From Minisyncoccia bacterium (GTDB lineage: Bacteria; Patescibacteriota; Minisyncoccia; UBA6257), in NCBI GenBank assembly GCA_049967535.1, contig JBMFSN010000001.1, positions 1 through 57,625 of the forward strand: a DNA stretch of 57,625 nt, written 5' to 3'. Of this stretch, positions 1,298 through 40,974 are shown one piece after another. Position 1 is the stretch's first letter; each line of letters begins with the position of its first letter. The notes below the pieces were generated by a model that did not search any database, was not told where the DNA came from, and saw only the letters and a program-made list of their open reading frames with translations. The position numbers and the translations under genes are program-made.

Positions 1298-2587
1298 ATG
1301 AAAAACAAAATTATTAAATGGGTTAAGAAATTAATACCTAAAAATCTTAAAAAAAATGCTTTTTTAAGAAAGGGGTTGGCTTATTTATCTAGCGGCCTTT
1401 TTGGTTTTCCTAGTAGACATTTAACTCTTATCGGAGTAACTGGTACTACGGGAAAAACTACCACTACTTTTATGATTAGAAGTATTCTGGAAGAGGCAGG
1501 CATCAAAACTGGTTTAATTGGAACTGCTGGTTATTATTTTGGTTCAGAAGTTGTTTATAATCAGAACGAAGGTCCAGGGACCACTCCTGATCCGTTTACC
1601 CTTCATCATATATTAAGAAAAATGATAGCCCAAAATGTCAAGGTGGTAATTTTAGAAGTTTCCTCATTTGGTTTAATGTATTATCGAACTTATGGCTTAA
1701 ACTTCCAATCAGCTGTTTTAACTAATATTGCTTTTAATCATCATGTCACTTTGCATGGCAGCATGGATAATTATGTCAAAGAAAAATTAAAATTATTTCA
1801 GTACCTCTCTCCAACAAGCTTAGCAGTTTTACCTTCGGAAAGTGAATATTTTGATGTTTTCAAAAAAGCTACTAAAGCTAAAATTGTCACTTATGGTGTA
1901 AATCCCCAAAATGATTTTTGGGCGGAAGATTCTAAAATTCATTGCAAAGATCAAATTTTTGATTTAAAATTAAAGATTCTTGGAAATTTTAATATCCTGA
2001 ATGCCTTGGCAGCGATAGCCGCTGTTTCCTTTTTGAAAATTGAGCCCTCTACTATAAAACAAGGATTAGAAAAATTAATCACTATCCCTGGTCGTTTAGA
2101 GTTATTACCAAGTCGAGCTCCTTTTCAAATTATTATTGATAAAGCAAATACTCCTTTAGCTTTCGAAAAGCTTATCGAATATTTAAAAAATGACTACCGA
2201 AAACAAAGTCACAAAATTATAGCTGTTTATGGTACTTTTCATGAAAGTCCAAAGGAAGAGAGAGATATGTTAGCTAAAATTGCAACCCAATTTTTTGATT
2301 TAATAATCTTTACAGAAGATGATCCGGCTAACGAGAAAAGAGAGAAAAGTTTGGATGATTTCCTTAGTTTTGTCCATCAAAATAATGTTGACCCCAATAA
2401 ATATTTAACAATTTTAAATCGAGAAGAAGCTATCAAGGCGGCTATTAATCATGCTCAAGCTAATGACTTGATAGTTATTTTAGGTAGAGGAAACGAGCAG
2501 TTTATGCTCTACCAAGATAAAAAGATTCCCTTTGATGACAGGGAAGTAACTAAAAATATCCTCAAAGAATTAAATTATTTATTATGA
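1298..2587 (+). CDS. murE: Mur ligase, MurE-like (UDP-MurNAc-L-Ala-D-Glu: diamino acid ligase)
   Basis: GVTGTTGKTTTT P-loop, GTTPDP and EVSSFGL motifs, and a Mur ligase C-terminal domain. The N-terminal domain is short. ATGA start/stop overlap with alaS. Confidence 0.8.
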   Translation: MKNKIIKWVKKLIPKNLKKNAFLRKGLAYLSSGLFGFPSRHLTLIGVTGTTGKTTTTFMIRSILEEAGIKTGLIGTAGYYFGSEVVYNQNEGPGTTPDPFTLHHILRKMIAQNVKVVILEVSSFGLMYYRTYGLNFQSAVLTNIAFNHHVTLHGSMDNYVKEKLKLFQYLSPTSLAVLPSESEYFDVFKKATKAKIVTYGVNPQNDFWAEDSKIHCKDQIFDLKLKILGNFNILNALAAIAAVSFLKIEPSTIKQGLEKLITIPGRLELLPSRAPFQIIIDKANTPLAFEKLIEYLKNDYRKQSHKIIAVYGTFHESPKEERDMLAKIATQFFDLIIFTEDDPANEKREKSLDDFLSFVHQNNVDPNKYLTILNREEAIKAAINHAQANDLIVILGRGNEQFMLYQDKKIPFDDREVTKNILKELNYLL

Positions 2588-4374
2588 CCTCTGAAGAATT
2601 AAGACAACAATTTTTAGATTTTTTTAAGGAAAAGGGACATAGAATAATACCTTCTTCCTCTTTAATTCCTGAAAACGACCCCTCTGTGCTTTTTACTACC
2701 GCTGGGATGCAACAATTTAAATATTACTATACAGGCAAGCAAAATCCATTAGTTGATAAACATTTTAGTATAAGTGAGCCTTTAAATAACAAAAATGTTG
2801 CTACTTGCCAAAAATGTTTAAGGACAAGTGATATCGAGTCAGTGGGCGATCAAAGCCATTTAACATTCTTCGAAATGTTAGGCAACTTTTCTTTTGGCGG
2901 TTATTTTAAAAAAGAAGCAATTACATTTGCTTATGAATTATTAAATTCCAAATTCCATATTCCAGATTCTAGAATAACTGTTACCGTATTTGAAGGAGAT
3001 AAAAACATTCCTCGTGATGAAGAGTCAGCAAAAACTTGGTATCAATTTGGTTTTTCTGAAAAGAACGGCAATTTACTTTTTTTGGGTAAAGATAGTAACT
3101 TTTGGGGTCCTACTGGAAATGAAGGACCATGCGGTCCTACTACAGAAATTTATGTTGACGGGATAGAAATTTGGAATTTAGTTTTTAATGAGTATTATAA
3201 ACATTTAGACCAAACTCTTACTCCTTTAACTATTAAAGGAGTAGATACAGGAATGGGCTTAGAAAGATTAGCTTTAGTAACCCAATATCCTCAGGATAAA
3301 AACAAAACTATTTATGATACGGACTTATTTCAAGATTTATTAACTTATCTTAAACATCAAGGCACTAAACAAGAGAGCGATAACTTATATCGTATTATTG
3401 CTGACCATTTTAAAGCTAGCGTTTTTTTGGCCGGGACTGGTATTGTTCCTTCTAACACCCAGCAAGGTTATATTTTGAGAAGATTAATTCGAAGAATTGT
3501 TCGCTTTAGTAAAATTTTAAATTTCAAAAACAATTGGATAGCAGAAGCCTATGAAATTATTAAGGAAAAATATGGTTATTTTTACCCAGAAATAAATAAT
3601 CAAGAGGAAATTTTATCTATCATAGACCAAGAAACTAATAAATTTGAATCTAGTTTAATAAAAGGATTAAAAGAATGGCAAAGAATAGTTAGTCAACTAT
3701 CAGAACAGGAAAAAACTATTCCTGGGGCAACAGCCTTTTATTTATACGAAAGTTATGGTTTTCCCATAGAAATTTTAGAAGAAATGGCTAAAGAAATAAA
3801 TAAAACAGTAGATCGTTCTTCTTTTGAAGCAGAATTTCAAAAACACCAAGTTATTTCTCGCGCAAGCCAAGAGAAAAAATTTGGCGGGCACGGAATAAAT
3901 GAGGTCAAAGACGAAGACAGCAAAAAACAAATTATAAAATTACATACTGCTACCCATTTACTTTTAGCTGCCTTAAGACAAATTATTGATTCTAAAATTG
4001 AGCAAAAAGGTTCTGATATTACCCCAGAGAGATTACGTCTAGATTTTCCTTTTTCTAGAAAATTAACAGAAGAAGAAATTAAAAAAATAGAAAATTTAAT
4101 TAATCAAAAAATTCAAGAAAACTTAGAAGTTCATTTCTATGAAACAAATTATGAGCAAGCAATTAAAGAGGGAGCTCTTGGTTCTTTCAAAGACAGATAC
4201 CCGGAAAAGGTAACTGTTTATGAAATAAAAAGTCCCCAGGATAATACGATTTTTTCTAAAGAGATTTGTGCTGGTCCTCATGTTTCTTCAACTAAGGAGA
4301 TGGGGGTGTTTAAAATTATCAAAGAAGAATCTGTAGGACAAGGCATAAGACGGATTAAAGCAACTCTAATTTAA
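2584..4374 (+). CDS. alaS: Alanine--tRNA ligase (short form, 596 aa)
   Basis: FTTAGMQQFK class II core, GPCGPTTEIY, and editing-domain motifs HTATHLL and CAGPHV. It ends shortly after the editing domain. Confidence 0.9.
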   Translation: MTSEELRQQFLDFFKEKGHRIIPSSSLIPENDPSVLFTTAGMQQFKYYYTGKQNPLVDKHFSISEPLNNKNVATCQKCLRTSDIESVGDQSHLTFFEMLGNFSFGGYFKKEAITFAYELLNSKFHIPDSRITVTVFEGDKNIPRDEESAKTWYQFGFSEKNGNLLFLGKDSNFWGPTGNEGPCGPTTEIYVDGIEIWNLVFNEYYKHLDQTLTPLTIKGVDTGMGLERLALVTQYPQDKNKTIYDTDLFQDLLTYLKHQGTKQESDNLYRIIADHFKASVFLAGTGIVPSNTQQGYILRRLIRRIVRFSKILNFKNNWIAEAYEIIKEKYGYFYPEINNQEEILSIIDQETNKFESSLIKGLKEWQRIVSQLSEQEKTIPGATAFYLYESYGFPIEILEEMAKEINKTVDRSSFEAEFQKHQVISRASQEKKFGGHGINEVKDEDSKKQIIKLHTATHLLLAALRQIIDSKIEQKGSDITPERLRLDFPFSRKLTEEEIKKIENLINQKIQENLEVHFYETNYEQAIKEGALGSFKDRYPEKVTVYEIKSPQDNTIFSKEICAGPHVSSTKEMGVFKIIKEESVGQGIRRIKATLI

Positions 4375-4430
4375 GGTTGATTATTGTTTAATATTTGCTA
4401 TAATAAATTAATTGCTTTTACCTAAAATCT

Positions 4431-5930
4431 ATGAAAAATAATCCTAAGAAAAAAATATTAGATATTTATCCTCCTCACACTTTTACTAAAAAAGAAGCAG
4501 AGGTTAATGAACCATCGAAAGATAATGATGTTTTTCATTATCGGGAAGAAACAGAAAATATTATAATTCGTATTGAACCTCAACCTATCAAGAAAGAAGA
4601 AAAAAAAGAAGAAAAAGAGGAAGAAAAAGCTTCTCTCCAAGAAAAACCTACTACCATTGAAGAAGAGTTAAGAAGTATTGGAATAGAAAATGAAGAGCCT
4701 ATTATAAAACCAGAATCATATGAATCTTCAGATTTTCAGACTTCTCGATTACAAGAACCAAGAAAAAACAGAATTCCTTTTGTTGTCTTATCTCTAGTTT
4801 TTCTTGGGTTAGTATACTATTTAGGATTTTTTGCTTTAGCCAAAGCAGAAGTTTCTATTACTTCAAAAAAACTCACTTTATCGTTAAATAATCAAGCCGT
4901 TCTCGTCGATAAAAATATTAGTGCTTCTAACTTAAATCAAAATACTATTCCGGGTAATTTATTTATCTTTCCTGAAAATGCCGAACGGGATTTTAATAGT
5001 ACCGGGCAAGGGAAAGATGAAAGAAAAGCCAAGGGCACCATTACCATTATTAATAATTTTTCTACCTTATCTCAAATCTTAGTAGCTAATACTAGATTTC
5101 AAACACCAGATGGCAAGATTTTTCGTTTAGATTCTCGTATTGCTATTCCTGGTGCGACTACTCAAGATGGAAAATTAATCCCTTCTTCTATTGATGCTAG
5201 TGTCACAGCTGACCAGCCAGGGCCTAATTATAATATTCCGCCTTGCACTGATAAATGTAAATTTACCATTCCGGGATTCCAAGGAACTCCAAAATTTGAA
5301 GGTTTTTATGGCCAAAGCAAAAGTCCCATGACCGGAGGTAGCTTAGGATCTACTCCCATGATTACTAACGATGATATAAAAAACGCCGAGGACATTATCT
5401 TAAAAACAATCAATGATAAAATAGCTGAAGATTTAAAAAATAAAATACCTAATAACTTGACTATTTTGGATGGAGCAAAAAGCAGCACTAATATTACTAA
5501 TTTATCCGATGGGGGAGTATCGGCTGGAGATTTTCGTCAGACTTTTACTGTTCAGGCCACTGGAGAAGTAAAGGTTATTGCTTTTAGAGAACAAGATTTA
5601 ATAGACTTAATTCGCAACCAACTCAATTCCCAAAAACCTGAACAATATGATTATTGTGGCAATCCAACTATTAATTATATAAACATTAAGCCAGATTTTA
5701 ATGCCGGAACAATGAAAATCATTCTTAATGCTACTCAAACTTTGTGCTATCATCTTGATCCTCAGTCCATTAAAAAAGATATCATGGGAAAAAATCAAAA
5801 AGATTTAGAAATGATTTTTAAGAGTATGGATGGAGTAGAATCTAGTAAAATTAAATTTTACCCTCTTTGGATTAAAAAAGTGCCTAATACTCTAAATAAA
5901 ATTAAAGTTTCTATTGACCCCACACCATAG
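4431..5930 (+). CDS. Hypothetical membrane-anchored protein with K/E low-complexity N-terminus
   Basis: 499-aa ORF with a KKEEKKEEKEEEK tract, one hydrophobic span (IPFVVLSLVFLGLVYYLGFFALA) and a large extracytoplasmic-looking domain. No family recognised. Confidence 0.6.
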   Translation: MKNNPKKKILDIYPPHTFTKKEAEVNEPSKDNDVFHYREETENIIIRIEPQPIKKEEKKEEKEEEKASLQEKPTTIEEELRSIGIENEEPIIKPESYESSDFQTSRLQEPRKNRIPFVVLSLVFLGLVYYLGFFALAKAEVSITSKKLTLSLNNQAVLVDKNISASNLNQNTIPGNLFIFPENAERDFNSTGQGKDERKAKGTITIINNFSTLSQILVANTRFQTPDGKIFRLDSRIAIPGATTQDGKLIPSSIDASVTADQPGPNYNIPPCTDKCKFTIPGFQGTPKFEGFYGQSKSPMTGGSLGSTPMITNDDIKNAEDIILKTINDKIAEDLKNKIPNNLTILDGAKSSTNITNLSDGGVSAGDFRQTFTVQATGEVKVIAFREQDLIDLIRNQLNSQKPEQYDYCGNPTINYINIKPDFNAGTMKIILNATQTLCYHLDPQSIKKDIMGKNQKDLEMIFKSMDGVESSKIKFYPLWIKKVPNTLNKIKVSIDPTP

Positions 5931-5967
5931 CAAGCTTTTAATTATGTACTATTCAAAGGTGTAGGGG

Positions 5968-5996
5968 TTGACTAAAATCGTTTATTTTGCTAAACT
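5968..5996 (+). promoter_or_regulatory. Candidate sigma-70 promoter of the infA-rpmJ-rpsM operon
   Basis: TTGACT (5968..5973), 17-nt spacer, then TGC-TAAACT (-10 at 5991..5996, extended TG). It lies 13 nt upstream of the infA ATG. Confidence 0.5.
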
Positions 5997-6008
5997 ACTA
6001 AAGTTTTT

Positions 6009-6224
6009 ATGACTCGTAATGAAGCATTGAGAAAAGAGGGGATTGTCACTGAAGCTTTGCGTAATGCAATTTTTCGTATTAAGCTAAATGATGGTCCAGA
6101 GGTCTTGGCACATTTATCTGGCAAGCTTCGTCTCAATAGAATAAAAATTTTAAATGGAGATAAAGTTTTGGTAGAACTGTCTTCCTACGATCCTACAAAA
6201 GGTCGGATAATTTATCGTCTATGA
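6009..6224 (+). CDS. infA: Translation initiation factor IF-1
   Basis: 71 aa, S1-like fold sequence [51 protein letters not shown]. Confidence 0.95.
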
Positions 6225-36544: not shown

Positions 36545-36631
36545 ATTTTTGTAACAAAAATCGGTGACCCCCTCCTTTCTTTCGAAAGGAGGGGGCAGCC
36601 CCACCGTTGGTAATCTTGCGACTACCAATAT
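36545..36631 (-). promoter_or_regulatory. Candidate promoter plus two-hairpin leader with U-tract upstream of trxB (attenuator or small RNA)
   Basis: Minus strand: TGCTATAAT (36631..36623); hairpin TTGGTA-N10-TACCAA (36618..36597); CGGTG...[CCCCCTCCTTTC-GAAA-GAAAGGAGGGGG]...CACCG (36596..36552), followed by ATTTTTGTT. The trxB ATG lies about 20 nt further on. Confidence 0.4.
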
Positions 36632-38188: not shown

Positions 38189-38587
38189 CTACTCCGTAGT
38201 AATACCATCAAACTCTTCTTCATTAGCTTCTGCCTCTGCTTTAGTAGAATGAATCGTTCCATCTTTATGATGAGCTGGAGAATAAATAGTGTAAAGCTTT
38301 AAATCTTCAGTTTCTGAAGTATTAATTATATTGTGCTCTGCTCCTGCTGGAACAATAGCAGCAAATCCATCTTTAACTTCATATTCATTTCCATCAATAA
38401 TGACTTTGCCCTCCCCTTGCTCAAAACGAAAAAATTGATCGCTTTCTGGATGCACTTCCATTCCTATCTCTTCCTGGGGTTTTAAAGTCATCAGTACTAA
38501 TTGGCTATGATGAGCCGTATACAGAACCTTGCGAAAATTATTATTTTCCAAAGTTCCTTCTTCAATATTGGTAATATATCCTTTCAT
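38189..38587 (-). CDS. Cupin-domain protein
   Basis: GMEVHPESDQFFRFEQGEGKVIIDG...VPAGAEHNIIN matches the two cupin motifs. Confidence 0.75.
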   Translation of the reverse strand: MKGYITNIEEGTLENNNFRKVLYTAHHSQLVLMTLKPQEEIGMEVHPESDQFFRFEQGEGKVIIDGNEYEVKDGFAAIVPAGAEHNIINTSETEDLKLYTIYSPAHHKDGTIHSTKAEAEANEEEFDGITTE

Positions 38588-38795: not shown

Positions 38796-38990
38796 TTATT
38801 TTGCAATAATCAAAATTTTAGAGATCGTTGTGTAGGTTTTCTTTTTGAAACTAAAGACAATTTCGTCTTTCGTTGATACTGAAGCACTATCAAAAAATTT
38901 ATCAATTTCGCCAATAATCCATAAACTATCAGATATGATATCCTGATATTATTTCCAATTTTTTAAATTTAAGTCGTTTATCTTGGGCAT
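38796..38990 (-). pseudogene. Decayed N-terminal fragment of a DNA methyltransferase-like gene
   Basis: Manual minus-strand translation: MPKINDLNLKNWK*YQDIISDSLWIIGEIDKF... The W-x-Y-x-D-I-x-(T/S)-DSLWI pattern resembles N-termini of N4/N6 methyltransferases. There is an in-frame TAA at 38949..38951, and no catalytic motifs follow. Confidence 0.35.
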
Positions 38991-38991
38991 A

Positions 38992-39045
38992 TTATTTTAT
39001 TAAATCATCAACAGTCACACCTAATGCTTTGGCAATTTTTGCCAT
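38992..39045 (-). pseudogene. C-terminal remnant of an XRE-type HTH (controller-like) gene
   Basis: The minus strand encodes MAKIAKALGVTVDDLIK*, matching the recognition-helix/C-terminus of XRE HTH proteins. Stops lie upstream. The remnant's stop is 1 nt from the ATG of the methyltransferase fragment. Confidence 0.35.
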
Positions 39046-39271
39046 ACAATTTAGTATTTATACCTTTTTATTTTATCAGAAATATATTATTTTGTCTAAA
39101 GAAAAATAGCACTTTAAAACACCGCTTTTTGCTGAAAGTAAAATTTTGCGGAGCCCCTCACTTGAAAAAGATTTGCTATCGTAAAATACTCATAAAATAA
39201 AAAATTTTTGAATAAGTAATTATTCCTTATTAAGAAAATTCTTAGATTTATGAAATAAATTTATCTTTTTC

Positions 39272-39447
39272 AAGTGAGGGACGGAGGAGGTGGGATTCCT
39301 CTTCGGTCAATTGCCTGACGACAATTGCCTCCGAGCCTGGCCTCGCGGTGCTCGCCTTTTGCTTCGCAAAAACTCGCACAGCGCTCCGGCCTTCGAATTC
39401 CCACCCGCAAACCAAGCAGTTGGTTTGCTCTCCTTCCTCGCTCACTT
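39272..39447 (-). ncRNA. GC-rich structured element of unknown class, immediately 3' of tRNA-Ser
   Basis: Sharp GC-rich island in an AT-rich window. An 18-nt closing helix pairs 39447..39430 with 39289..39272 (15/18). Perfect 9-bp hairpin at 39428..39407. Contains an exact copy of tRNA positions 71-87. Confidence 0.4.
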
Positions 39448-39456
39448 TGTTCGCTG

Positions 39457-39543
39457 CGGAGGAGGTGGGATTCGAACCCACGATACCCTTGCGGATATAC
39501 AGCTTTTCCAAAGCTGCGCACTCGGCCACTATGCGACTCCTCC
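39457..39543 (-). tRNA. tRNA-Ser (anticodon GGA), class II, no encoded CCA
   Basis: Folded by hand. 7-bp acceptor GGAGGAG/CTCCTCC, 3-bp D stem with GG loop, anticodon stem CAGCT/AGCTG with loop TTGGAAA. 6-bp variable arm with GCAA loop. T arm GTGGG-TTCGAAT-CCCAC. Discriminator G. Confidence 0.92.
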
Positions 39544-39573
39544 TCAACCTCCTCTTTTGAGGAGGATTGATTA

Positions 39574-39972
39574 TTAAATTTTTATCTTATAAGCATATTT
39601 ACCTACTAAAGGAATTTCTTTCTTTTGATTCTGTACTACATTAATAATTCCAATAATTGATAAAACTAATAAACCAAGATTAACTAGCTCAACAATAATG
39701 CCTAAAATTGATAGTAATCCCCAAGTAAAAAGAGAACCTATCAAAATAGCCACTAAAATTCTATAAATAACGTAAACAATACCTTCTAAGATAAAAAGGA
39801 TTAAACCTTGCTTGGCATGAAAATATACAAACTCATTATCTTTTTTGGTTAGCAAAGGAATGAAACACAAAAATGAAAGATAGCTTAAAATACCCATAAG
39901 TTTATTATCATCCATTTTTGCATTATCTGATGCTGGTTGGCTAACCGGCATTGGTTGTTTGTCTTCTTCCAT
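39574..39972 (-). CDS. Small membrane protein, DUF4870-like
   Basis: MGILSYLSFLCFIPLLTKKDNEFVYFHAKQGLILFI matches the DUF4870-type signature. Three hydrophobic spans. Confidence 0.6.
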   Translation of the reverse strand: MEEDKQPMPVSQPASDNAKMDDNKLMGILSYLSFLCFIPLLTKKDNEFVYFHAKQGLILFILEGIVYVIYRILVAILIGSLFTWGLLSILGIIVELVNLGLLVLSIIGIINVVQNQKKEIPLVGKYAYKIKI

Positions 39973-40068: not shown

Positions 40069-40974
40069 TTATTTGTCTCCGTCCATTTCTCTTAAAACCT
40101 TGATTCTTTCCTCTATTGGCGGGTGGGTTTGCCAAAGATTAGAAAACCAAGATATTTTCTTTGGCTTCAAAGGATCAGCAATAAATAGATGAGCAGTAGC
40201 TTGACTAGCAGTTCTTAAAGGATTAGGATCATTAGCGATTTTTTCCAAAGCTCGGGCTAATCCCTCGGGATAGCGAGTTAAGAGAGCCCCATTAGCATCG
40301 GCCAAAAATTCTCTTTTACGAGAGATAGCTAATTGTAGAAGAGTGGCGGCTAGAGGAGCAAAAAGAGCAGCTAATAATCCCAGAATTAAAAAAATAAATT
40401 CTAAATTGTCATTTTTTTCTCTTCTTCTTTCCCCACCAAAAGCCATTTCTCTAATCAACCAATTAGATAAAAGAGAAATCACTCCTACTAAAACAACGAT
40501 AACAGAATCTAATAAAATATCGCGGTTACCAATATGAGATAATTCATGGCTTACCACCCCTTCTAACTCAACTTTATCTAATTTATTCAAAAGCCCAGAA
40601 GTAACGCAAATCGCAGCGTGTTGAGGGTCACGCCCAGTAGCAAAAGCGTTGGGAGAAACATCATTAATAATATAAACTTTAGGCATGGGTAATCCAGCCG
40701 TAATAGATAAATTTTCCACAAGACGATATAACTCTGGATTATCCCCCTTTTGAAGGGGACCTTGAGCTTGGGATAAAGATAAAATTATTTTATCTGAGTT
40801 CCAATAACTTAAAAAACTTTGAGTAATAGCTAAGGCAACTGCTATAAATAAAATCCATTGTTCATTAAATAAATAACTAAAAATCCAACCTAAAAAAATA
40901 ACAAAAACCAAAAACAGGGTCATAAAAAGCCACGTTTTCCTAATATTGGATGCTGCTTGGGTATAAAGAGTCAT
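40069..40974 (-). CDS. htpX: Zinc metalloprotease HtpX (M48)
   Basis: HELSHIGNRD (HExxH), TM segments, EFLADANGA, and C-terminal THPPIEERI. Confidence 0.88.
   Translation of the reverse strand: MTLYTQAASNIRKTWLFMTLFLVFVIFLGWIFSYLFNEQWILFIAVALAITQSFLSYWNSDKIILSLSQAQGPLQKGDNPELYRLVENLSITAGLPMPKVYIINDVSPNAFATGRDPQHAAICVTSGLLNKLDKVELEGVVSHELSHIGNRDILLDSVIVVLVGVISLLSNWLIREMAFGGERRREKNDNLEFIFLILGLLAALFAPLAATLLQLAISRKREFLADANGALLTRYPEGLARALEKIANDPNPLRTASQATAHLFIADPLKPKKISWFSNLWQTHPPIEERIKVLREMDGDK

Follow-up and report, generated by a model that had tools for sequence, protein, structure and literature searches.

The window, meaning the whole 57,625-nt stretch that was analysed, carries on its minus strand a tRNA-Ser(GGA) gene (39457..39543; Rfam RF00005, 55.9 bits; 39456-39543 according to ARAGORN), which both tools recognize as intact and in which the CCA end is not encoded. 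A tRNA-Ser(GGA) gene lies downstream of HtpX and a MamF-like gene in about 80 Patescibacteria loci; for the proteins neighbouring it in the window, an exact-sequence look-up gave no record. Directly behind the tRNA gene, on the same strand, lies a GC-rich structured element (39282..39456, 175 nt), which starts with the base that follows the tRNA discriminator and closes with a second copy of the tRNA 3' end. The minus strand contains the 17-mer GAATCCCACCTCCTCCG at exactly two places, as repeat copy 1 within the tRNA, of which it forms the last 17 nt (39473..39457), and as repeat copy 2 at 39298..39282, which confirms the recurrence described in the initial annotation. In the tRNA it begins midway through the T loop and ends at the discriminator, and an exact repeat of this length within 700 nt is not expected by chance. 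GC content is 58.3% in the element and 57.6% in the 158 nt between the copies, compared with 31.6% for the contig, and the contig maxima in 60-, 100- and 160-nt windows all fall in this region. Both the GC excess and the five overlapping stop-free ORFs noted earlier are thus found, the latter in the ORF listing. Other GC-rich patches of the contig were considered as copies of the element and rejected; the patch at 36560-36620, for example, is an ordinary terminator-like hairpin. The first bases after the tRNA form a trailer, CAGCGAAC (39449..39456, minus strand), which also follows the tRNA or the repeat as native flank in relatives (...CTCCG CAGCGAACGAAATC in locus L173, CTCCG CAGTGAATAAAA next to a cupin gene in L170, and CAGCGAATGAAG in L194). 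Because this sequence is native flank there, the insert's left edge can be placed only to within about 12 nt.

At its other end, the element adjoins an independent small mobile DNA, which lies outside the GC-rich region. This segment (39154..39281, minus strand; 128 nt) has an AT-rich non-coding body, terminal inverted repeats (C)CCCTCACTTGAAAAAGAT of 18-19 bp that pair at 18/18 positions, and a 5-bp target duplication, CGGAG on the plus strand, at 39149-39153 and 39282-39286. A copy that is 87.5% identical lies between metK and groES in L031 (3173-3300), flanked by the duplication TTGAC, and further copies occur in L090 and L173. The duplications of the four copies read CGGAG, TTGAC, CTAA(C) and CTCCG, and the same pentanucleotide served as insertion site in the window and in L173. 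With its inverted repeats, target duplication, non-coding body and copies elsewhere, the segment can be classified from its sequence as a MITE; no parent transposon was identified. This assignment affects the extent of the neighbouring element, which had been described as closing on itself through an 18-nt pairing. The pairing exists, at 15/18 positions, but its 3' half, CCCTCACTT (39280..39272), is the MITE terminal repeat. Since CCCTCACTT belongs to the MITE, the element ends at 39282, not at 39272, and is 175 nt long. Beyond the MITE, comparison with L003, L006 and L179 identifies 38992..39148 (minus strand) as the conserved left end of a restriction-modification (RM) cassette. It holds the ORF MAKIAKALGVTVDDLIK, 18 codons long with its stop (17 residues), and a terminator hairpin that has decayed. 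The equivalent sequence of relatives directly follows the tRNA end and precedes RM genes, listed in the gene tables as N6_N4_Mtase, MutH, RE_HindVP and RE_BsaWI; in the window these genes are gone.

The region folds into a stable secondary structure. A 192-nt stretch reaches a minimum free energy (MFE) of -83.8 kcal/mol (z = -4.8), and 0/200 shuffled sequences fold as well; its opposite strand is also stable (z = -4.3). For the element itself (39282-39456), the MFE is -73.1 kcal/mol on the tRNA-sense strand versus -59.9 on the other. In the window as in both homologous loci, L194 and L138, G is abundant on the tRNA-sense strand, and it is this strand that gives the more stable fold.

Five helices, P1 to P5, make up the fold, all on the minus strand. 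The 5' strand of P1, GGAAGGAG (39430..39437), pairs with CTCCTCC of repeat copy 2 (39283-39289) as an acceptor-like stem (helix 2 of the consensus, 6 pairs), which is invariant between the window and L194. P2, taken from the inverted-repeat listing, is the perfect 9-bp hairpin GCAAACCAA-CTGC-TTGGTTTGC (39407..39428) that had been recognized by eye; its L138 counterpart, GCAAGGCAA-CTGC-TTGCCTTGC, has two pairs altered on both sides and an unchanged loop. The 5' strand of P3, GGGTGGGAATTC (39395..39406), pairs with GAATCCCACCT of repeat copy 2 (39288-39298), forming a T-stem-like helix that closes a three-way junction. In L194 the P3 arm reads GTGTGGGA and the repeat copy TCCCACAC, the arm co-varying with copy 2 and not with the tRNA itself. 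An antisense regulator of the tRNA was also considered and rejected, since in L194 the repeat copy is a better pairing partner for the arm than the tRNA is. P4 is a long hairpin (39339..39391) with the base 5' GGCC-G-GA-GCG ... CGC-GA-GGCC 3' and the tip TTTTGC-GAA-GCAAAA; this tip and the pairing of GGGTGGGAATTC with GAATCCCACC, both proposed in the initial annotation, are present in the minimum-energy fold. The P4 base contains a tandem G.A motif and a one-base bulge (helices 5-8), and its stem reads GGCC/GGCC in the window, GCTC/GAGC in L194 and CGCC/GGCG in L138, while an inner pair switches from U-A to G-C among the homologs. P5 (39299..39335) consists of a CTC/GAG stem and the 10-bp hairpin GGCAATTGTC-GTCA-GGCAATTGACC with a bulged A (helices 9-10); in L194 three of its pairs are altered on both sides and one on one side, with the GTCA loop and the bulged A retained. 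Repeat copy 2 (39282..39298) supplies the 3' strands of P3 and P1; its equivalent has diverged in L194 (GAATCCCACACCTCCG+CCA) and decayed in L138. The CGAAG direct repeats reported earlier do flank the P4-P5 block. Overall, the fold has two three-way junctions, and its purine-rich internal loops and hairpin loops are conserved (CTGC, GTCA, GGAGC/GCGA). In the modelled structure, P1 and P3 are built on the copy of the tRNA 3' end, P2 lies between the arms, and the T loop is replaced by P4 and P5.

The initial annotation had proposed looking for homologs beside tRNA-Ser and for compensatory covariation, and both were found. Comparison loci were gathered by HtpX synteny from genome and metagenome collections and are mostly relatives at 55-63% identity. 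With the element as query, blastn and nhmmer against all fetched loci at first matched L138 alone, the nhmmer link between window and L138 having E = 0.01-0.02 in 1.1 Mb. The two homologs, at 2638-2817 in L194 (82% identical over about 175 nt) and at about 1148-1321 in L138 (distant), both lie directly 3' of tRNA-Ser(GGA) and score 200 and 116 bits, respectively, with covariance model R1. Applied to 99 sources (705 kb), this model found no members beyond these three. The element has a GC content of 53-58% in all three hosts, each of which is AT-rich, and gene callers place no ORF over its homolog in L194.

The window and L194 differ by 30 substitutions, of which 14 fall in the 114 paired columns of the alignment and 16 in the 63 unpaired ones. 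They break none of the consensus pairs, changing six on both sides and two on one side, as judged with a consensus structure derived from the same alignment and from three members, mainly one close pair. Structures shifted by 1-3 columns yield no compensated pairs and only 34-45% pairing, and random placement of an equal number of changes left zero pairs broken in 0/200,000 trials. When the MFE structure of the window alone serves as reference, 47 pairs are unchanged, eight are changed but kept and five are broken. Supporting the model, the independent MFE structure of L194 has the same five-helix architecture, and in L138 two further pairs of P2 are compensated and one pair of the P4 base is flipped. 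Identity between the window and L194 is 82% in the element, 74-76% in the neighbouring genes, 64% in the tRNA body and 59% in the leader, which makes the element at least as conserved as the neighbouring genes and more conserved than the tRNA body and leader. The alignment of the three sequences indicates that the secondary structure is kept through compensatory substitutions, as expected of a non-coding RNA.

No known RNA family accounts for the element. Among the 4227 models of Rfam 15, which include ribozymes, RNase P, SRP, 6S, Y-RNA-like RNAs and group I/II introns, it matches none, and at gathering and E-value thresholds the tRNA alone was found in the window, L138 and L194. The top non-tRNA scores, sX4 at 17-24 bits (threshold 70) and plastid UTR motifs, are due to the tRNA portion. 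ARAGORN and the Rfam tRNA model detect nothing within 39282-39456 even at E = 10, and neither ARAGORN nor Rfam reports a tmRNA; the earlier visual judgement that tmRNA, SRP RNA, RNase P RNA and hammerhead ribozyme cores are missing is therefore upheld. A captured fragment of rRNA or another structural RNA was rejected, there being no local Rfam match. The element had no blastn match in phage and plasmid collections, and scans of IMG/VR with three patterns returned no matches or chance ones in GC-rich phage genes.

The 3' end of tRNA-Ser appears, from the compared Patescibacteria loci, to be a recombination hot spot. The site is empty in L170/L171, where the cupin gene begins 30 nt after the tRNA; the initial annotation had proposed looking for such an empty site. 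The closest relatives have either an empty site or a different small insert, L173 carrying such an insert at the same place. Each small insert in other relatives is terminated by a copy of the 3' end of the tRNA beside it, and the design of arm, interior and repeat copy recurs in L017, L098, L117, L002 and L006. In L132 a gene for a large serine recombinase overlaps the 3' end of tRNA-Ser, in L098 one overlaps repeat copy 2, another abuts tRNA-Ser in L106, and recombinase remnants adjoin it in L097, L113, L135 and L143. Across the syntenic loci, the site harbours genes for homing endonucleases, cargo of the RM and CBASS kinds, and tRNA alleles that are mosaic, and strains with identical HtpX differ in cargo and carry mosaic tRNA. 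L120 has tandem tRNA-Ser(GGA) genes, and L016 and L172 have tRNA copies that are decayed, the one in L172 containing a 20-nt GC palindrome. The element itself has a patchy distribution (3 of about 80 loci), and because close relatives lack it, it is dispensable.

With respect to an attL/attR pair, the locus shows the exact 17-nt direct repeat from T loop to discriminator, a restored tRNA and the empty site in relatives; an integrase is absent, as the 158 nt hold no gene. No recombinase was found in the window, and when the large serine recombinases from L098 and L132 were used as tblastn queries, neither the window nor L194 nor L138 gave a match. The bases immediately to the left of repeat copy 2 are unlike a recombinase half-site. 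A remnant of a recombinase C-terminus was rejected as a source, since it would lie on the wrong side of repeat copy 2 and tblastn was negative. It is copy 1, and not copy 2, that is followed by the native flank CAGCGAAC, an arrangement not predicted by a simple attL/attR model. As to whether the small inserts represent the far (P-side) end of serine-recombinase elements, the sole IMG/VR relative (L195) is without a tRNA-like end, and both ends of one such element were found together in no locus.

These observations are most likely explained by combining two of the earlier readings, the tRNA-derived non-coding RNA and the attachment-site scar with structured cargo, into something more than recombination debris. 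The first stands in its structural part, the two homologs keeping the five helices by compensatory changes; the second stands as regards origin, on account of the span of the 17-mer, the empty sites, the inserts of relatives and the abutting recombinases. The element is accordingly interpreted, at roughly even odds (about 0.5), as a real, conserved, non-coding structured cassette and as a member of a small new family derived from the tRNA 3' end and residing at a tRNA attachment site. Its ultimate origin from tRNA 3'-end sequence is clear. Going by its three members, the family would always stand immediately 3' of tRNA-Ser(GGA), in Minisyncoccia and related Patescibacteria.

The cassette may have been inserted by recombination at the tRNA 3' end, with the 17-mer as the duplicated attachment core of a site that is used by large-serine-recombinase elements in the clade. 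A search of the tRNA strand between tRNA and element gave no site resembling a promoter or a terminator; as the two also share a strand and no CCA is encoded, the element is predicted to be transcribed as the 3' trailer of tRNA-Ser. Cleavage by RNase Z after the tRNA discriminator would free it, and the freed element would fold alone into a tRNA-minihelix-like RNA whose P1/P3 stack might again be recognisable by tRNA end-processing enzymes. A bolder and improbable extension is that of a horizontally exchanged, mobile tRNA-mimic gene, in which the tRNA-Ser 3'-end copy would serve both as recombination site and as half of an acceptor/T-stem minihelix, and an RNA of about 175 nt, released by tRNA-processing enzymes, would act on factors directed at tRNA-Ser. 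Such an RNA could, for example, be a decoy or regulator of tRNA-targeting defence or toxin enzymes of the adjacent defence island.

An interpretation at the DNA level, rather unlikely on the present evidence, is a palindromic mobile element of the REP/BIME, PATE or MITE kind, whose hairpins would serve a transposase or recombinase in the form of single-stranded or cruciform DNA, or would be symmetric through template switching, and which would have no RNA function. The inverted and direct copies of the tRNA 3' end do resemble terminal inverted repeats, both strands fold significantly, the distribution is patchy, and other small mobile DNAs occupy the locus (the MITE in the window and L173, and the L172 palindrome). 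Template switching, or selection on hairpins of single-stranded DNA, can moreover produce compensated changes in hairpins at the level of the DNA itself. However, all three copies lie at one site, with no further copy elsewhere on the 57.6-kb contig or within the 705 kb of related loci, and no transposase or RAYT-like gene is evident among the neighbours. The two three-way junctions and conserved purine-rich loops are more typical of RNA, and the strands are asymmetric, with G exceeding C on the tRNA-sense strand, conserved G.U pairs and a better sense fold. MITE likeness is confined to 39154-39281, with its 128 nt, inverted repeats, 5-bp duplication and copies at unrelated sites; unlike REP/BIME or MITE sequences, the GC-rich element is without dispersed copies in the material examined, namely one 57.6-kb contig of the genome and 705 kb.

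It is quite unlikely that the region is a functionless scar, left by one or more elements that integrated at tRNA-Ser and were then deleted, with the structure arising from the direct and inverted tRNA copies. Decay would be expected in a 32%-GC genome, yet the element keeps a GC content of 53-58%, and its 82% identity exceeds that of the flanking genes (74-76%) and the leader (59%). Compensated stem changes also occur in P4 and P5, both of which are without tRNA-derived sequence. These points weigh against a history that would otherwise fit the 17-nt repeat from T loop to 3' end, the empty site in close relatives, the recombinase genes and C-terminal remnants adjoining tRNA-Ser in relatives, and the RM-cassette remnants and MITE of the window. 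The degenerate second tRNA raised in the initial annotation, taken here as a decaying tandem duplicate of tRNA-Ser with a 90-nt insertion in its T loop, is very unlikely. The negative tRNA models speak against it, as do the lack of a D arm, anticodon loop and variable arm and the P2 loop of 4 nt. The order of parts is tRNA-like (an acceptor-like strand, a hairpin, a T-stem strand with TTCGAA, then the 3' strands), CGAAG repeats flank the P4-P5 block, and tandem or decayed copies of the gene are known from L120, L016 and L172. Nevertheless, the non-tRNA parts P2, P4 and P5 are conserved and compensated in L194 and L138, not decaying, and other relatives have as their arm an uninterrupted inverted copy of the 3' end, a layout unlike that of a tRNA.

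Williams is said to have defined, in 2002, sublocation classes for integration within tRNA genes. In the Islander concept, displaced tRNA fragments mark genomic islands integrated at tRNA genes (PMC4383910). Like such islands, the element has a direct repeat of the tRNA 3' end starting in the T loop, an intact tRNA and empty sites in relatives, and it occupies an island hot spot where recombinase genes abut the tRNA in relatives. Its "island" of 158 nt differs in holding no integrase or other gene and in having an interior that is a conserved multi-helix structure; furthermore, the recombinases of the site are large serine enzymes, none of them in the window, whereas tyrosine integrases are usual. 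The CIMEs of streptococcal ICEs are non-autonomous, att-flanked deletion derivatives of ICEs that are kilobases long. The element, a short segment, likewise has att-type repeats at its ends and no recombination genes, at a site used by autonomous elements, but it is compact and structured and shares no sequence with the recombinase elements at the site.

Modules resembling tRNA and processed by tRNA enzymes include MALAT1 mascRNA, the tRNA-miRNA transcripts of MHV68, bacterial YrlA and the tRNA-like domain of tmRNA. In the modelled fold, the element's acceptor/T-stem-like coaxial stack likewise appears to be made with genuine tRNA sequence from the 3' strand; a single presumed transcript joins this stack to other hairpins, and RNase P or RNase Z could define the transcript's ends. 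It differs from these modules in lacking a T loop, which is replaced by a junction and two hairpins, in having no Rfam match, and in its setting as the predicted trailer of a real tRNA in a bacterial CPR host. If this reading of the cassette is right, it would represent a structured RNA family not described before, in a group, the Patescibacteria, about whose non-coding RNAs hardly anything is known, and an unusual recruitment of a duplicated attachment core as a structural strand of the inserted RNA. The locus also illustrates the traffic of serine-recombinase elements, homing endonucleases, MITEs and defence cassettes at one CPR tRNA gene, which is useful for understanding gene exchange in reduced genomes.

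A further feature concerns the base of P4, whose GGAGC...GCGA(G/A)G sequence is also present in a 60-nt insert of L002 and L006. By inspection, it departs from the kink-turn consensus in having a bulge of a single G where three nucleotides are required, but as in a kink-turn it places a tandem G.A between stems, and this arrangement is kept in all three members and in the L002 and L006 inserts.

The window is a complete contig of 57,625 bp from a Minisyncoccia MAG (Patescibacteria/CPR), with a GC content of 31.6%. On its minus strand, groES, groEL, lemA and htpX (40069-40974) are followed by a MamF/DUF4870-like gene (39574-39972), a tRNA-Ser(GGA) gene without an encoded CCA (39543..39457), the GC-rich element (39456..39282) and, beyond it, a cupin gene (38189-38587). 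The initial annotation had described a structured, GC-rich segment bounded by a copy of the tRNA 3' end, and this description was borne out. The 17-mer GAATCCCACCTCCTCCG has exactly two occurrences, at 39473..39457 (copy 1, the tRNA 3' end) and 39298..39282 (copy 2, the last 17 nt of the element). The 175 nt of 39456-39282 are 58% GC and contain the contig's top 60-, 100- and 160-nt GC windows, five overlapping ORFs run across them, and all the hairpins listed earlier are found there. The region folds at -83.8 kcal/mol (z = -4.8), far better than shuffles, and its opposite strand likewise folds well (z = -4.3). No known RNA family is represented: an Rfam scan at both thresholds returned the tRNA alone, and ARAGORN called no second tRNA or tmRNA. 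Phage and plasmid records and IMG/VR contigs likewise gave no match to the element, nor did any curated RNA family.

The element is real and represents an insertion relative to close relatives. An empty site exists in the related loci L170/L171 (MamF-like protein 82% identical), where the tRNA is followed by CAGTGAATAAAA... and the cupin gene begins 30 nt on; the element is dispensable. In L173 (87%), the site holds a different insert of ~100 nt, whose last 11 nt copy the tRNA end; after it come a MITE of another subfamily, at the pentanucleotide also used in the window, and then the native flank CAGCGAAC. Still other inserts, of 60-145 nt, occupy the site in L017, L098, L117, L002 and L006/L007. 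All of these inserts follow one plan, in which an arm able to pair with the tRNA 3' strand is followed by an interior and then by a repeat of the tRNA 3' end of the genome concerned. True homologs of the element were found at two loci, L194 and L138. The L194 copy (2638-2817) lies directly after tRNA-Ser(GGA), in a locus whose MamF-like protein is 73% identical. Its identity to the window element is 82%, compared with 74-76% for the flanking lemA and MamF-like genes, 64% over the initial 60 nt of the tRNA and 59% for the leader. L138 (HtpX ~56% identical) carries a more distant copy. A three-member covariance model scores its own members at 203, 200 and 116 bits and detected no further ones in 705 kb of related loci. 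Separately, L009 has a GC-rich insert between groEL and lemA (about 1700-1900, minus strand) with many GAGCGAG/GCGAGG motifs and flanking AT-rich inverted repeats, possibly a small GC-rich element of a related type located away from any tRNA.

The three copies form a small family with conserved secondary structure. The consensus fold, obtained with RNAalifold on the window and L194, comprises 57 pairs in five main helices: P1, an acceptor-like stem in which GGAAGGAG pairs with CTCCTCC; P2, a 9-bp hairpin; P3, a T-stem-like helix of GGGTGGGAATTC and GAATCCCACC; P4, a long hairpin; and P5, a second further hairpin after P4. Repeat copy 2 provides the 3' strand of both P1 and P3. The two sequences differ by 30 substitutions, 14 in the 114 paired columns and 16 in the 63 unpaired ones, and no consensus pair is broken; six pairs are changed on both sides (two at the P4 base, one inside P4, three in P5) and two compatibly on one side. 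When partners were slid by 1-3 columns, no compensated pairs and 34-45% pairing remained, and random placement of the 30 changes gave an outcome without a broken pair in 0 of 200,000 trials. Because this consensus was derived from the alignment on which it was tested, the pairs were recounted on the window-only MFE structure: 47 were unchanged, eight changed but kept and five broken. Two of the broken ones, in P1 and in the T-like stem, adjoin a 2-nt indel in repeat copy 2. The MFE structure of L194 itself has the same architecture. Repeat copy 2 of L194 no longer matches the real tRNA end (TCCCACAC vs TCCCACCT), and the P3 arm shows a corresponding change (GTGTGGGA), so the selected pairing is inside the element and not with the tRNA. 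L138 contributes two compensated P2 pairs around an unchanged CTGC loop. It also brings the known variants of the P4 base stem to three (GGCC/GGCC, GCTC/GAGC and CGCC/GGCG). The P4-base internal loop GGAGC.../...GCGA is kept in all three members and recurs in the L002 and L006 inserts of 60 nt; its tandem G.A motif is K-turn-like, but it departs from the K-turn consensus because the bulge is of one base. In 3/3 members the strand in tRNA sense is rich in G and has a better fold than its complement.

The element is situated at an attachment hot spot and bounded by a repeat running from the T loop to the 3' end of the tRNA. In the ~80 Patescibacteria loci compared, tRNA-Ser(GGA) lies downstream of htpX, mostly after a MamF-like gene, and the sequence 3' of it is hypervariable. 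Contigs with an identical HtpX protein carry different cargo, including RM systems, CBASS genes and metabolic genes, and L174-L182, sharing one HtpX protein (P0019), as well as L001 and L002, show strain-level cassette exchange on the 3' side of the tRNA. In contigs whose flanking proteins are identical, tRNA-Ser alleles diverge beginning at the anticodon stem or at the acceptor 3' strand: L174 and L179 agree over 26 nt from the 5' end but not across the anticodon and variable arms, and L001 and L002, with the same HtpX, have unlike 3' acceptor strands. Such mosaics imply that recombination has taken place within the tRNA gene. Genes for large serine recombinases (Resolvase + Recombinase + Zn_ribbon_recom) converge on the tRNA from the opposite strand, their last codons overlapping the tRNA 3' end in L132 (5208-6695) or a copy of it in L098 (4203-5708); a more distant one occurs in L106 (about 4614-6149), and C-terminal remnants adjoin the tRNA in L097, L113, L135 and L143. 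Homing-endonuclease-like ORFs lie just 5' of the tRNA, LAGLIDADG in L007 (2899-3573) and L009 (about 4120-4770) and GIY-YIG in L172 (1653-2028). Variable cargo, mosaic tRNAs, recombinases and endonucleases together identify the tRNA-Ser 3' end as a recombination and attachment hot spot.

Several further features of these loci were recorded. The recombinase C-terminal codons (...NWRRGWDSNP) are read from the reverse complement of the tRNA T arm and acceptor end. In other relatives, several of the GC-rich hairpins that follow the tRNA represent decayed recombinase 3' ends, such as the palindrome-encoded AEAQRAEA. In L172, a decayed partial tRNA copy (5' half), split by the perfect 20-nt GC palindrome CCTGCCTGCCGGCAGGCAGG, precedes the GIY-YIG ORF. 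L117 (5900-6090) has a 144-nt tandem duplication of the tRNA 3' end and ~52 nt of flank with an inverted 3'-end copy inside, and in L120 (5251-5582) a tandem pair of non-identical tRNA-Ser(GGA) genes is followed by a third 3'-end fragment.

The element would have been acquired through recombination at the 3' end of the tRNA, and the obvious candidates for its entry are the serine recombinases found here in relatives. The window contains no serine recombinase, and its flanks are not a simple attL/attR pair, since the native CAGCGAAC flank follows copy 1. The element probably acts as an RNA: it shares its strand with the tRNA, a search of that strand between the two revealed no promoter- or terminator-like site, and its GC content and structure are maintained in AT-rich genomes. 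RNase Z processes CCA-less tRNA precursors, so release of the element as a trailer is predicted for this tRNA, whose gene lacks CCA. A reasonable alternative is a palindromic element acting at the DNA level, its hairpins selected or homogenised as DNA, since both strands fold and the family has only three sequences.

A functionless scar is unlikely, given conservation and compensation in parts unrelated to the tRNA, and a decaying tRNA pseudogene, the earlier suggestion of a degenerate second copy, does not fit the tRNA model searches or the conservation pattern. The element, as a putative RNA, is a combination of known kinds, a tRNA-like structured RNA and an att-flanked non-autonomous insert. 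Literature searches returned no report of such an element in Patescibacteria.

The adjoining AT-rich segment of 128 nt (39154-39281) is an independent MITE that landed exactly at the element end. The 18-nt stem proposed to close the element is thus retained only in part: its pairing halves are present, but the 3' half, CCCTCACTT (39280..39272), falls in one arm of the MITE's perfect 18-bp inverted repeat (second arm 39172..39155). A copy between metK and groES in L031 (3173-3300) is 87.5% identical, and more occur in L090 (1292-1425) and L173 (663-796). Members of the family measure 126-134 nt, end in terminal repeats (C)CCCTCACTTGRAAA and are flanked by target duplications of 5 bp that differ per copy; in the window the duplication is CGGAG (plus strand), with which repeat copy 2 ends. 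In L194, the element is present without the MITE and its 5' sequence AAGTGAGCGAGG is kept. Two MITE subfamilies, one in the window and one in L173, have inserted at an identical pentanucleotide, the CTCCG that terminates the copied tRNA 3' end, and the MITE right-end motif AAGTGAGGGG resembles the element 5' end (AAGTGAGCGAGG in the window, GCGTGAGGGGAG in L138).

Further along, 38900-39148 holds what is left of a restriction-modification cassette. It consists of a terminator hairpin in decay, a short segment similar to the beginning of a DNA methyltransferase but broken by a stop, and the 18-codon ORF MAKIAKALGVTVDDLIK (17 residues plus stop; 38992-39045, minus strand), which is also kept upstream of RM genes in L006, L101 and L179. 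On the other side, a CT/GA-rich hairpin, CCTCCTC-AAAA-GAGGAGG (39538-39566), separates the stop codon of the MamF-like gene from the tRNA and could be a leader structure, a terminator without a T run or another recombination trace. Its arms repeat the acceptor-stem strands of the tRNA, and relatives have a hairpin of other sequence at the equivalent place.
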